From positions 1 through 23,777 of IMG/VR virus record IMGVR_UViG_2698536484_000001: 23,777 nucleotides of DNA. One strand, written 5' to 3'. Under the pieces are notes generated by a model, which had not been told where the DNA came from, ran no database searches, and worked only from the letters and a program-made list of their open reading frames with translations. The stretch's first letter is position 1. Each line of letters opens with the position of its first letter. Below, piece after piece: positions 21,747 to 23,329 of the stretch. The translations under genes and the position numbers were made by a program. This stretch comes from a virus (lineage: Duplodnaviria > Heunggongvirae > Uroviricota > Caudoviricetes).

Positions 21747-22106
21747 TTACTCCTTAGAGCCACCAAACTTGTTACCGATTACTCGCATTGCAGCCCCACG
21801 AATAGCATCGACACCGATCAGCCCAACACCACCACCAATGGCAACAGAAAGCGATTTAGGCCATCCGACATACTCAAGAGCGGATGCAAAAGTCAGCGTC
21901 AGAGCACCACAGAGCAAAATCTCAAGCGTTTTTCGTTTCCAGCCGCCGCCACCGCCAAAATAGGCAATGCGCAAGCCAGCCATAACAATTGACATAACCA
22001 CTGCGCCCAACGGCGTATCTCCACGCCACCAACTTTGTAAGAGTTCCAGTAAGTCAGGCCAGGAATGAGGAGCATTGTGCATTTTCATACTTCCCACCTC
22101 CGCCAT
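21747..22106 (-). CDS. S: Class I holin (lambda S family); probable true start at 22088
   Basis: Three predicted TM segments and a charged C-terminus; alignable by eye with lambda S (RIAYFGGGGGWKRKTLEILLCGALTL vs lambda [26 protein letters not shown]). Track ORF begins MAEVGS-MKMH, but the first six codons encode the Shine-Dalgarno GGAGGTGGG, so the real starts are probably Met7 (22088) and Met9 (22082), an M-K-M dual start like lambda S107/S105. Confidence 0.8.
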   Translation of the reverse strand: MAEVGSMKMHNAPHSWPDLLELLQSWWRGDTPLGAVVMSIVMAGLRIAYFGGGGGWKRKTLEILLCGALTLTFASALEYVGWPKSLSVAIGGGVGLIGVDAIRGAAMRVIGNKFGGSKE

Positions 22107-22533
22107 TACGGGGTGTTGTTGAAAGGCGGGCCCTGCGTATACGCCCGTAGGATTGGGTTATGAGCCGTCCTTCGGTGGGCCCTGAATACAAAAAAAGTTC
22201 GCCATAGCGAACCTTGTTAAATTTGTTAAAAAAGGAGGTTATTTAACATAATGTACGTTATAGGAACCACACGATCCCCGCTCGCAATAGATTTGCGATG
22301 AAAGGCCTATTTAATCAACTTAAGTGGTCCAGAATGACGAAATTCGAGTGAATAAAAGGTGCATAAAAAAGGGCAAAAACTGCATAGCGTTTTTTCGCAG
22401 CGAAAGCCCTGTTTTATTAACTTTTCCCCAGAATGGGGCAATAAAAAAGGCCCCCTTGCGGAAGCCTCTTCGTGATGAACTGTTTTCAACAGATATCAGG
22501 CTAATCGGCTTTTTGGAATTCCACAACTATTTT
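22107..22533 (-). promoter_or_regulatory. Late regulatory intergenic region (candidate late promoter, Q-utilisation site, leader)
   Basis: 427-bp non-coding gap between the 113-aa gene and the holin, the canonical place for the Q-dependent late promoter; contains several GC stems with U tracts (GGGGC-cuuuuuuauu-GCCCC, plus 22435-22454; CCCC-auucu-GGGG) and a 10-bp palindrome GCGTATACGC (22135-22144). Exact -35/-10 elements could not be assigned. Confidence 0.4.
22190..22212 (-). terminator. tR'-like intrinsic terminator upstream of the holin
   Basis: Minus strand reads GUUCGC-uaug-GCGAAC followed by UUUUUUU: 6-bp stem (plus 22197-22212), 4-nt loop, 7-U tract, about 85-100 nt upstream of the holin start, analogous to lambda tR' downstream of pR'. 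Confidence 0.4.
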
Positions 22534-22875
22534 TTATCTTACCTTGATGCCTGATGCCGTCAGATGTTTACGACAGTCCTGAATACCTTCGTTATAACCC
22601 GCATCGTAGAAGCTATCCGGCTTTGCCTTCAGCGCAGGAAGCGTAACGCTGGTAGCTCTTCGTTCGGCCAGAACACCTGCCTGAAAGAGTGTCCACATCA
22701 ACTGAACTGCTGAATCACAGTAAGTAACATCTTCACTGTACAATTCTCGTTCAATCCTGATGCCAAGTTGAGCCTTCATTGATGCGCCAATATTACCTTT
22801 GACCTGCAACGACAGGTCTGGGTACCTCTGTTCCATGAAGCTTTCAAATCTGTTGCGAACGCTGATCAGAGCCAT
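22534..22875 (-). CDS. Hypothetical protein (113 aa) between Q and the lysis cassette
   Basis: ORF with AAGGGAA 6 nt upstream of ATG at 22875; no family recognised; occupies the Q-to-S slot where lambdoid phages often carry morons. Confidence 0.45.
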   Translation of the reverse strand: MALISVRNRFESFMEQRYPDLSLQVKGNIGASMKAQLGIRIERELYSEDVTYCDSAVQLMWTLFQAGVLAERRATSVTLPALKAKPDSFYDAGYNEGIQDCRKHLTASGIKVR

Positions 22876-22906
22876 CTGGTTCCCTTACGTGATTGATTGC
22901 TGGATA

Positions 22907-23329
22907 TTATGCCGCCGAGCAGCTCCTACGCAAAGTCCTGATAGCCTGAGGCTTTGACTGAACCGACTGATCCATTTCGAGCACCACATCCAGCATGGCT
23001 AAGCAACCGTCAATAAATCCCTCTGCCGCCTGAAGCCTCTTCAGAACGTGGGTGTGAGATACGCCGAGCTTCTCACCCATCGCCCGCACGGGCATGGCCT
23101 GGACGTAATGCCACTCAAGGAGCGTGCACAGATACGGATCTTTTTTCTTCAGGCAGCTCATAGCGGAGTTGATGATAAGACCGTCATTGTCACTGCATTT
23201 CAGCCTTCCAGACTGCGTCGCGGGTAGCAGATTCTTAAACCCGGCTGCAACAGGAGGAAAGTAGACGCTACCACCTTCACTCGCTGCCCAGCCACCCCAG
23301 CGCTCTAAAACCTGTTGAATATTACGCAT
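22907..23329 (-). CDS. Late-gene antitermination protein Q (QuuD / phage 82-21 type)
   Basis: 140-aa protein begins MRNIQQVLERWGGWAA...AAGFK and ends ...LKRLQAAEGFIDGCLAMLDVVLEMD, matching the pattern I recall for the E. coli DLP12 QuuD Q-family antiterminator (MRDIQMVLERWGAWAA...AAGFK...KRLQKAEGIIEGML..LD..LEMD); sits upstream of the lysis cassette as expected. Confidence 0.75.
   Translation of the reverse strand: MRNIQQVLERWGGWAASEGGSVYFPPVAAGFKNLLPATQSGRLKCSDNDGLIINSAMSCLKKKDPYLCTLLEWHYVQAMPVRAMGEKLGVSHTHVLKRLQAAEGFIDGCLAMLDVVLEMDQSVQSKPQAIRTLRRSCSAA

Follow-up and report, generated by a model that had tools for sequence, protein, structure and literature searches.

The 427-bp gap between the Q-side genes and the lysis genes of an Escherichia coli prophage (IMG/VR record IMGVR_UViG_2698536484_000001; its whole 23,777 nucleotides are called the window here) is probably a mosaic of four units. 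Read along the minus strand, which carries all late genes of the window, these are a candidate late promoter (pR') with its terminator T1, a cassette resembling a site for the host XerC and XerD recombinases (XerCD), a further terminator (T3) and a folded leader ahead of the holin gene. The antitermination part is of the ordinary Q21/Q933W type. The unexpected element is the cassette, which we infer to be a putative Xer dimer-resolution site of the plasmid type exemplified by cer and psi, embedded in a phage late-control region. More tentatively, we propose that temperate tailed phages of enterobacteria carry an accessory-factor-dependent, plasmid-type Xer dimer-resolution site with an embedded gene for an RNA resembling Rcd, by which their circular (or plasmid-state) genome would be kept monomeric. 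On this proposal the carriers would be prophages with a myovirus-like Q/lysis organization, podovirus prophages with a T7-type portal, and phages of Klebsiella, Hafnia and Yersinia, the site lying in late-operon gaps with its accessory side always facing incoming transcription.

The gap extends from the stop codon of a 113-amino-acid open reading frame (ORF), orf113, at 22534 to the holin gene. A prophage of E. coli O55:H7 DEC5E carries the same DNA (100% identity). The region recurs, nearly identical, in 139-146 of 5,426 complete E. coli genomes, on the chromosome every time, and four induced phages of the vB_EcoM-611R5 group have such copies as well. An earlier note, made from the letters of this DNA, had taken the gap for a Q-dependent late control region with intrinsic terminators. 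This description holds: a gene for a PF06530-type Q lies upstream, the pR' candidate and the terminators T1 to T3 lie within the gap (Table 1), and all structures named in that note are present at the positions it gave for them.

Table 1. Features of the late-control region and adjoining genes (window coordinates)
Feature	Position	Strand	Details
Xer core, 28 bp	22268-22241	-	XerC arm GGTTCCTATAA 22268-22258; centre CGTACA 22257-22252; XerD arm TTATGTTAAAT 22251-22241
Accessory region, ~159 bp, XerC side	22427-22269	-	Kept in 113 unique copies, 37 clusters
Three phased boxes, candidate accessory-protein site	22387-22347	-	CTATGCAGT 22387-22379; TTATGCACC 22366-22358; TTATTCACT 22355-22347
-35 of candidate pR', TTGTGG	22526-22521	-	Same hexamer, spacing and -10 type in L347, L349, L350, L351, L352
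17-bp spacer AATTCCAAAAAGCCGAT, possible Q-binding element	22504-22520	-	AATTCCAAAA(A/G) kept in 5/5 Q-homology relatives
-10 of candidate pR', TAGCCT	22503-22498	-	Positions 1, 2 and 6 agree with TATAAT
Leader start	22495-22490; 22492-22480	-	-10-like TATCTG; small hairpin CUGUUGAAAACAG (from fold)
T1, best tR' candidate	22471-22443	-	Ends ~50-nt leader; 12-bp stem, GCAA loop, U6
Small hairpin CCCCAUUCUGGGG, between T1 and cassette	22437-22425	-	From fold
T2, two-way terminator-like hairpin, outer accessory end	22416-22364	both	UAAAA.CAGGGC ... GCCCU.UUUUA
T3	22215-22190	-	9-bp stem AAGGUUCGC/GCGAACUUU at 22215-22194; U7 run to 22190
Promoter-like site	22223-22252	+	-35 TTGTTA 22223-22228; 18 bp; -10 CATAAT 22247-22252
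Sense -10-like CATTAT, without -35 hexamer	22253-22248	-	Symmetric with opposite -10 (ACATTATGT)
Predicted non-coding RNA, ~160 nt, Rcd-like	22260-22420	+	Core, then accessory region, then T2
Folded holin leader	22182-22128	-	Helix GGGCCC/GGGCCC (22182-22177 with 22133-22128) around smaller hairpins
CCGCC..GGCGG stem over Shine-Dalgarno and dual start ATGAAAATG	22120-22082	-	From fold; annotation of identical copies
Holin, lambda-S family	start 22088	-	Pfam PF05106
orf113, 113-amino-acid ORF	22875-22534	-	No Pfam match
Q antiterminator, 140 amino acids	23329-22907	-	Pfam PF06530, E = 5e-42
76-amino-acid ORF	23605-23375	-	Upstream of Q

A cassette with the features of a plasmid Xer site

Comparison with a 79%-identical E. 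coli prophage delimited a cassette of ~210 bp (22427-22220) that is conserved independently of its flanks. Further copies were retrieved by exact-pattern scans, which gave 50 viral contigs, and then with a different anchor, which gave five viral contigs; one locus (L140) was recognised via the core pattern, and 96 metagenome contigs were also retrieved. The resulting set comprises 155 loci, with 113 unique sequences in 37 clusters at 95% identity. The lead to Xer recombination came from a literature string search with the invariant 13-mer CATTATGTTAAAT, which returned papers on dif and Xer.

The core of the cassette has the 11-6-11 layout of E. coli dif (GGTGCGCATAA-TGTATA-TTATGTTAAAT; PMC2731167) and matches it in the XerD arm at 11/11 positions. 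The XerC arm, in inverted orientation, matches the dif arm GGTGCGCATAA at 8/11 positions in the window and at 9-10/11 in relatives. This is the more variable arm of known Xer sites (PMC2731167), and across the 113 unique copies it agrees with dif at 7-10/11 positions in nearly all. The central region is 6 bp long in essentially all of these copies, with a sequence that differs between lineages. The core pattern occurs once in the 23.8-kb window, where none would be expected by chance. The XerD arm also accounts for a 7-codon mini-ORF (ATG TTA AAT ... TTT TAA) that we had considered and rejected. The core and the conservation of the cassette are there to be seen in the DNA; recombination at the site is our reading of them.

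The accessory region adjoins the XerC arm, and its position and length agree with those of cer and psi. The cer site has about 180 bp of accessory DNA bound by PepA and ArgR, and psi uses PepA and ArcA (PMC5357621; bioRxiv 10.64898/2026.02.23.706985). Within the accessory region, three phased boxes form a candidate site for an accessory protein. They are spaced by 21 bp and 11 bp in the indexed representatives of the cassette classes (the window, class B, L232 of class C, and L271) and persist in copies in which the T2 stem or the core has decayed. They lie ~80-120 bp from the core, as compared with 96 bp for the ARG box of cer (TTGCATAGGTATTCATAC, upstream of its core), and are direct repeats, unlike the palindromic ARG box or the TGTTA repeats of ArcA. 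A decayed copy lies between the small and large terminase subunit genes of E. coli EC2001 (L520 3493-3688) and Hafnia phage yong1 (L522): 2 bp are missing from its XerD arm, and the block corresponding to the plus-strand -35 (see below) has turned into a Shine-Dalgarno sequence, the three phased boxes and a T2-like stem being kept.

The gene contexts of the cassette number at least five. In one, exemplified by the window, it follows Q and T1 and precedes the lysis genes; in the others it lies directly before structural genes and after the gene for an unrelated 89-amino-acid helix-turn-helix protein, in a Q-less prophage whose portal is of the T7 type; between the genes for the portal and the large terminase subunit, as in Klebsiella phage Mulock; between the terminase subunit genes, with the decayed core just described; or directly ahead of another gene. 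Flanking transcription enters from the accessory side in every one. Sites of the ColE1 type likewise have a fixed orientation, with read-through transcription entering from the accessory side (PMC2831885). The Q alleles found upstream of the cassette are as little as 32-47% identical to that of the window and differ across the predicted helix-turn-helix region. Since the cassette is common to such divergent alleles and to phages lacking Q altogether, it is not an allele-specific target of Q. The structured elements in the middle of the gap, which belong to the cassette, are likewise not Q-related, as they also occur in Q-less phages and in phages whose Q is 45% identical.

Homologues of the core and its flank are also present on about 87 plasmids. 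One of these (NZ_CP070025.1 1096-1330; L524) has the core GGTGCCGATAA-CGTCCA-TTATGTTAAAT and a similar flank beside a RelE/ParE toxin-antitoxin pair. Many of the core-bearing plasmids are non-mobilizable and 47-49 kb long, a size that suggests they are possibly phage-plasmids.

Several points weigh against a Xer site. The accessory region yielded no canonical ArgR or ArcA box; for PepA there is no simple consensus with which to search. Among the common variants of the XerC arm, that of the window diverges most. That the XerD arm is invariant is partly built in, because the search patterns contained this arm; an independent test comes from only about six loci, found with a different anchor, and these have the XerD arm too. 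Literature searches gave no report of cer/psi-type sites in tailed phages, although absence from the literature searched is not proof. Lastly, the need for such a site in an integrating prophage is not evident.

A candidate late promoter that accompanies one Q subfamily

The earlier note had found no assignable -35/-10 hexamers in the gap. This is true of a simple consensus scan, which detects the opposite-strand site and no minus-strand promoter, and a promoter was therefore sought by comparison. This did yield hexamers, namely TTGTGG-17-TAGCCT at 22526-22498. Relatives with 64-71% identity in Q, retrieved by protein similarity only, share a single non-coding motif, TTGTGG-AATTCCAAAA(A/G)N6-TA(A/C/G)(A/C/T)(C/T)T, which is followed two bases on by a -10-like TAAGAG and, 45-60 nt further, by a GC hairpin and U-run. 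The -10 pattern TA(A/C/G)(A/C/T)(C/T)T, 17 bp after TTGTGG, describes these relatives and the variants found by DNA pattern. The motif lies directly after an orf113 homologue in three relatives (L347, L349 and L350) and over the Q stop codon in two (L351 and L352). In a separate scan of viral contigs with the first 16 bases of the motif, 27 true variants of the promoter architecture were recovered. The context of 22 loci was checked, and a gene of the Q1 family (or Q plus orf113) lay directly upstream in all those with upstream sequence (21/21). The full motif occurs once in the window (0 expected by chance).

The promoter thus co-occurs with one Q subfamily, as a cognate late promoter should. 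Late promoters of Stx phages are "closely associated with Q" and their transcript is terminated downstream (PMC7547250), and Q21 has been placed in Pfam PF06530, in the Q21/Q933W family (bioRxiv 10.1101/651190). From spacing and from the mapping in Stx phages, the start site would lie at ~22491 +/- 3. The TATCTG of the window sits where TAAGAG sits in the relatives and in 434/Stx-type phages, and is a candidate for a pause element. We conclude that 22526-22498 is the candidate cognate late promoter of Q and T1 the likely first terminator, equivalent to tR'; the Q-binding element may lie within the 17-bp spacer. The co-occurrence with Q is a direct observation; that the promoter is active and that Q loads there we infer from the sequence.

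Some data speak against this assignment. The match to the sigma-70 consensus is weak (3/6 + 3/6, or 6/12), which is why the simple scan missed it. The initial transcribed sequence of the window is TATCTGTTGAAAACAG, as opposed to TAAGAGTGGTYAC in most relatives, a deviation that counts against the predicted loading of Q at the window's pR'. This early transcribed sequence resembles that of phages with the Q2 allele, whose Q is only 45% identical; Q2 phages share T1 and everything downstream, but their promoter region is different and poorer.

Other searches around Q and its target were negative. No direct repeats of the phage 21 kind are present in the conserved pR' spacer. Two copies of TTTAACAA at 22228-22213 were considered as Q-binding direct repeats and rejected, as they are not kept among Q-encoding relatives. 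At 62 genome loci Q is <=53% identical, and none of these has DNA in common with the region; a PDB sequence search with Q returned a marginal match to Q21 only, and literature searches for the promoter motifs gave nothing relevant. In Q2-type loci such as L005 (2420-2462; E. coli EC20017429), the 3' end of Q2 contains two copies of a 10-bp direct repeat, TGCGCTACGC, with a 16-bp period. The copies are read in two different frames and lie just upstream of a -10-like hexamer, TACGCT; this repeat may be the Q-binding element of the Q2 allele.

Three terminators, and a promoter between T2 and T3 as an alternative

The T1 hairpin spans 22471-22444 and its U-run extends to 22443; together, leader and T1 fold with -19.1 kcal/mol (z = -3.0). 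Among 11 sequence variants of T1, with about nine distinct stems, hairpin and U-run are present in all, and the minus-strand fold is the better one in 9/11, by 5-10 kcal/mol in seven. T3 (-10.4 kcal/mol, z = -2.2) has six sequence variants, with compensatory and G-U changes suited to the minus strand only. The variants of both terminators keep a hairpin of 8-12 bp followed by a U-run and, with their G-U pairs, the minus-strand fold beats its reverse complement in most, often by several kcal/mol. Judged by these variants across related phages, the T1 and T3 hairpins are more than chance structures. T2, which the earlier note did not mention, would act in both directions: U-rich tracts flank it on both sides, and it folds with -16.7 kcal/mol (z = -3.1) on the minus strand and -15.2 kcal/mol (z = -2.3) on the plus strand. 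Its stem is degenerate in class C, where the cassette sits within the late operon. The GC hairpins reported earlier at 22425-22454 are also real and correspond to the small hairpin CCCCAUUCUGGGG plus the 3' half and U-run of T1; the small hairpin shows a compensatory change (CCCG/CGGG) in some relatives and is broken (CTCTA..TCAGT) in others.

T3 is the terminator that had been recognised at 22190-22212 and compared to tR'. As a terminator it is well founded, and the analogy with pR'-tR' was right in kind; the terminator chosen was the wrong one, since T1 is the first after pR' and T3 the third. For T3 to be tR', the late promoter would have to lie between T2 and T3, with the CATTAT at 22253-22248 as its -10 and a predicted transcript of ~55 nt ending at T3. 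The distribution of T3 lends this some weight. T3 begins ~5 nt past the end of the cassette (22220 to 22215), and by scan a T3-type terminator follows the cassette in 7/13 Q-encoding clusters (8/13 if L293, whose hairpin is then followed by only 4 T in 8, is counted) and in 0/24 Q-less clusters, in which the cassette is followed by a hairpin without a U-run or directly by a gene. The leader length would resemble that of phage 21, and a gene or operon begins 45-170 nt downstream of the core in every context. However, CATTAT has no -35 hexamer, its sequence is fully accounted for as part of the XerD/XerC binding core, and the core is identical in Q-less phages and in phages whose Q is 45% identical, which leaves no room for an allele-specific Q-binding element; moreover, another promoter in the gap, pR', does co-vary with the Q subfamily. 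We therefore consider a late promoter between T2 and T3 unlikely. On the simplest reading, T3 stops polymerase that Q has not modified. It would be a Q-linked, downstream back-up terminator that Q bypasses, which keeps part of the earlier idea, but presumably the third in a series that starts with T1 and not a promoter-proximal one.

An opposite-strand promoter and the question of a regulatory unit

In the window, as in two divergent relatives, just one site of the region resembles the sigma-70 consensus, and it is on the plus strand. Its -10 falls within the XerD arm and central region of the core and its -35 just outside the arm, a placement that would suit repression by XerCD. The 13-bp block holding this -35 is invariant, and the spacer has 7 nt that vary in sequence though not in number. 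On the minus strand the block reads TTTTTTAACAAAT(T) (22220-22233) and follows the XerD arm in all copies of the cassette; its invariance over 13 bp exceeds what a -35 hexamer needs. The sense and antisense -10 hexamers pair at positions 2 and 6, with predicted starts ~18 bp apart, and such a spacing is a common geometry of bidirectional promoters (bioRxiv 10.1101/2020.01.31.928960).

A transcript from the plus-strand site would run from the core across the accessory region to T2, and the conserved cassette is bordered by the -35 hexamer of this site at one end and by the U-tail of T2 at the other end. In ColE1, the small RNA Rcd is made from Pcer, a promoter inside cer that is repressed by XerCD (PMC4393325; PMC2831885). 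By analogy, the RNA embedded in the cassette, if it exists as the sequence suggests, could signal that dimers are unresolved and delay division of the host, the role that Rcd has for ColE1. Against this parallel, RNAalifold gave no convincing consensus fold of the cassette RNA on either strand, and where exactly the Pcer hexamers lie within cer could not be confirmed. The body of the cassette has weak single-sequence fold z-scores (0 to -2.3). Rfam searches, with gathering thresholds over the whole window and permissive E-values over 22050-22600, returned terminator-like chance matches on T1 only and no family match on either strand, whether Rfam has an Rcd model being unchecked. The cassette shows no 3-nt periodicity. 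A small protein was accordingly rejected as its product: the recurrent opposite-strand ORF of 17-22 amino acids often has no start codon, has no Shine-Dalgarno sequence and shows no 3-nt periodicity, and a 38-amino-acid ORF annotated in phage 611R5 is not conserved.

These features raise the possibility that the cassette is a regulatory unit, that is, an independent small-RNA gene (moron) or a promoter cassette for the genes downstream of it, with no more than a resemblance to dif. Its borders are then readily understood as promoter and terminator, and its varied intergenic positions would be moron-like. A bare Xer core also leaves unexplained the invariant TTTTTTAACAAAT after the XerD arm, which resembles the boxA region of rrnB (CTCTTTAACAATTTATC; 13/15 positions in class B copies). 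We examined the block as an rrn boxA-like antitermination signal on account of its resemblance to CTCTTTAACAAT and rejected this, as the GCTC core is missing. A regulatory unit would, on the other hand, have acquired by coincidence an 11/11 XerD arm, a 7-10/11 XerC arm, a centre of exactly 6 bp and accessory DNA of the right length on the right side, which is very improbable. Homologues of core and flank occur on plasmids, the body of the RNA has no conserved fold or coding signal, and in one context the promoter core has decayed and the accessory boxes persist. A purely regulatory cassette thus appears distinctly unlikely, and we retain the Xer site as the preferred interpretation, with the RNA as a possible component of it.

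Genes upstream of the gap, and two further alternatives

In several lineages orf113 recurs as an optional gene between Q and the late promoter, with homologues 44-45% identical in L347 and L350. In phage vB_EcoM-611R5 (L001 2971-3060) it is reduced to a deletion remnant, which implies that orf113 is dispensable for phage growth. The 76-amino-acid ORF upstream of Q gave only weak, zinc-ribbon-like Pfam matches (E about 0.01-0.05).

A late promoter could also be placed upstream of orf113, over the Q stop codon, where TTGCGT (22933-22928) and CATAAT (22911-22906) are separated by 16 bp; orf113 would then be part of a constitutive leader terminated at T1. This site matches the consensus better than pR' does (3/6 + 5/6), it is kept in a copy with a 91% identical Q and in the 611R5 phage, and the Stx late promoter likewise overlaps the end of Q. 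Its conservation is uninformative, however, because it lies in coding sequence, and it is not kept in relatives with 66-71% identity in Q, which do keep the non-coding TTGTGG...TAnnCT downstream of orf113. The 611R5 phage, too, has lost most of orf113 yet retains the downstream promoter. A late promoter over the Q stop codon is thus very unlikely, and pR', downstream of orf113 and inside the gap, agrees with the earlier note in not placing the promoter upstream of this gene. The TTGCGT-16-CATAAT site (22906-22933, minus strand) could drive orf113 itself.

Beyond the right end of the window, related loci carry a gene for a 722-amino-acid primase-polymerase/VapE protein (DUF5906) 0.8-1.4 kb upstream of the cassette (L105 and about 20 class A/B loci). 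It is 84-100% identical between the myovirus-like Q/lysis phages and the T7-portal podovirus prophages, and this similarity indicates that phages with virion modules of very different kinds have an early replication block and the Xer cassette in common. The notion that the cassette is a replication or packaging site, with the boxes as DnaA boxes, iterons for the VapE-type primase or sites for the terminase small subunit, is barely credible: the boxes do agree with TTATNCACA at 8/9 positions, 2 bp apart and with a phasing of 11 and 21 bp, a ~90% identical primase lies 0.8-1.4 kb upstream in classes A and B, and several contexts adjoin terminase genes, but single 8/9 DnaA-box matches are at chance level (15 found vs 19 expected), no such primase is present within 5-11 kb in class C and at other loci, the location with respect to terminase genes varies, and phased sites ~100 bp from a Xer core are what cer/psi accessory regions contain.

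The holin leader and the genes downstream

The 10-bp palindrome GCGTATACGC (22135-22144), noticed earlier, is part of the conserved folded leader of the holin, in which it forms a GCG-UAUA-CGC hairpin nested in the GGGCCC/GGGCCC helix. In L071-type relatives the alignment shows GGGCTC/GAGCCC, CTG/CAG in place of CCG/CGG, and GCGC-TT-GCGC in place of GCG-TATA-CGC, with pairing kept throughout. Identical genomes have the holin start annotated at the ATG at 22088, and the 22106 start of the ORF list corresponds to an ATG further upstream. As in lambda, the holin has a dual start, Met-Lys-Met (22082-22088, minus strand), and the stem over the Shine-Dalgarno sequence and dual start suggests holin/antiholin control like that of lambda S105/S107. 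This CCGCC/GGCGG stem recalls the sdi structure of lambda S. The holin is followed on its 3' side by an endolysin-sized ORF, an Rz-sized ORF and the gene for the terminase small subunit (PF03592). A search of the window for tRNA genes found none.

Comparison with known systems

The promoter part has counterparts in several phages. Like the window, phage 21 has a PF06530 Q, a promoter right after the regulatory gene(s), a -10-like start element and a ~50-nt leader running to an intrinsic terminator; its -35, Q-binding element (between -35 and -10), -10, start and terminator all fall within about 50 nt. The two Q proteins are only distantly related (phmmer E = 0.13 vs PDB 6P18), however, the -35 and spacer differ, and the 8-bp direct repeats of phage 21 (ATTGAGCA/AATGAGCA) are absent from the window. 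The window goes further than phage 21 in having orf113 between Q and the promoter, and two more terminators and a putative recombination site before the lysis genes. Stx phages (933W/Min27-type), whose late promoter regions include the short RNA StxS, and 434-type phages have a Q 42-47% identical to that of the window and, as in the window, a promoter at or just after the end of Q, then a hairpin and a terminator. Min27 and 434 share the initial transcribed motif TAAGAGTGGTTAC with the relatives of the window, the window itself having TATCTGTTGAAAACAG. Stx and 434-type phages also resemble the window in that inserted cargo occupies the stretch from tR' to the lysis genes, though this cargo consists of tRNA or toxin genes and, in the window, of the putative Xer site. 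The distance from PR' to tR' is 258 nt in Stx phages (PMC7547250), as opposed to ~50 nt here.

The cassette resembles plasmid sites to differing degrees. The psi site of pSC101, whose core we read as GGTGCGCGCAA-GATCCA-TTATGTTAAAC, shares the dif-like core, the 6-bp centre and the long accessory region on the XerC side; its XerD arm is one base off that of the cassette, and nine cassette variants have exactly the psi XerC arm. The accessory sequences of the two cannot be aligned, however, and no ArcA-type TGTTA repeats were found in the cassette. The settings also differ, a plasmid replicon in one case and a chromosomally integrated tailed prophage in the other, as does the predicted promoter overlapping the core of the cassette. 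ColE1 cer (GGTGCGTACAA-TTAAGGGA-TTATGGTAAAT as read from its sequence), like the cassette, combines a core with ~160-180 bp of accessory DNA and has an accessory-protein site, a candidate one in the cassette, ~80-100 bp from the core. Similar, too, are a site-internal promoter for a small RNA, repressible by XerCD and in the cassette a prediction, and a fixed orientation to incoming transcription. In contrast to the cassette, cer has an 8-bp centre and the XerD arm TTATGGTAAAT. Rcd is about 70 nt long as compared with the ~160 nt predicted here; no similarity was detected, no direct comparison with the Rcd sequence having been made. The dif site shares the XerD arm and layout of the cassette, but has no accessory sequences and depends on FtsK. 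IMEX of the CTX-phi type provide a precedent for phages that exploit the host XerCD (PMC5357621). They are mostly filamentous phages integrating at dif, whereas the cassette sits in the late-operon leader of tailed phages with their own replication and packaging genes.

A model for the region and its implications

We propose that pR' would start a leader of ~50 nt and that, without Q, transcription would stop at T1. Q, encoded just upstream, would load at pR', and polymerase could then pass T1, T2 and T3 and transcribe the genes for holin, endolysin and terminase. The cassette would be used by host XerCD, together with architectural proteins, to resolve dimers of the circular phage genome. Its plus-strand sigma-70 promoter would produce an RNA of ~160 nt across the accessory region, ending at T2, and binding of XerCD would be expected to occlude this promoter. 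T3 would stop polymerase not modified by Q, including polymerase from weak sense-strand starts at the symmetric core promoter, and lysis would in this way be strictly Q-dependent. That a promoter arrives with the recombination site would explain why T3 exists, namely to shield the lysis genes. Finally, the structured leader and dual start would control translation of the holin.

For annotation, the analysis provides a widespread E. coli prophage group with a concrete candidate late promoter and terminator, and one Q subfamily with a promoter signature, TTGTGG-AATTCCAAAAA-N6-TAnnCT. It also illustrates that a hairpin conserved in the stretch from Q to the lysis genes is not necessarily part of the antitermination machinery. 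If the embedded RNA is real, a possible Rcd-like host-control RNA would be added to the phage repertoire. If the Xer site is active, tailed phages would borrow the host dimer-resolution machinery as small plasmids do, and this would bear on the upkeep of circular phage genomes as monomers before packaging, and on phage-plasmid lifestyles.

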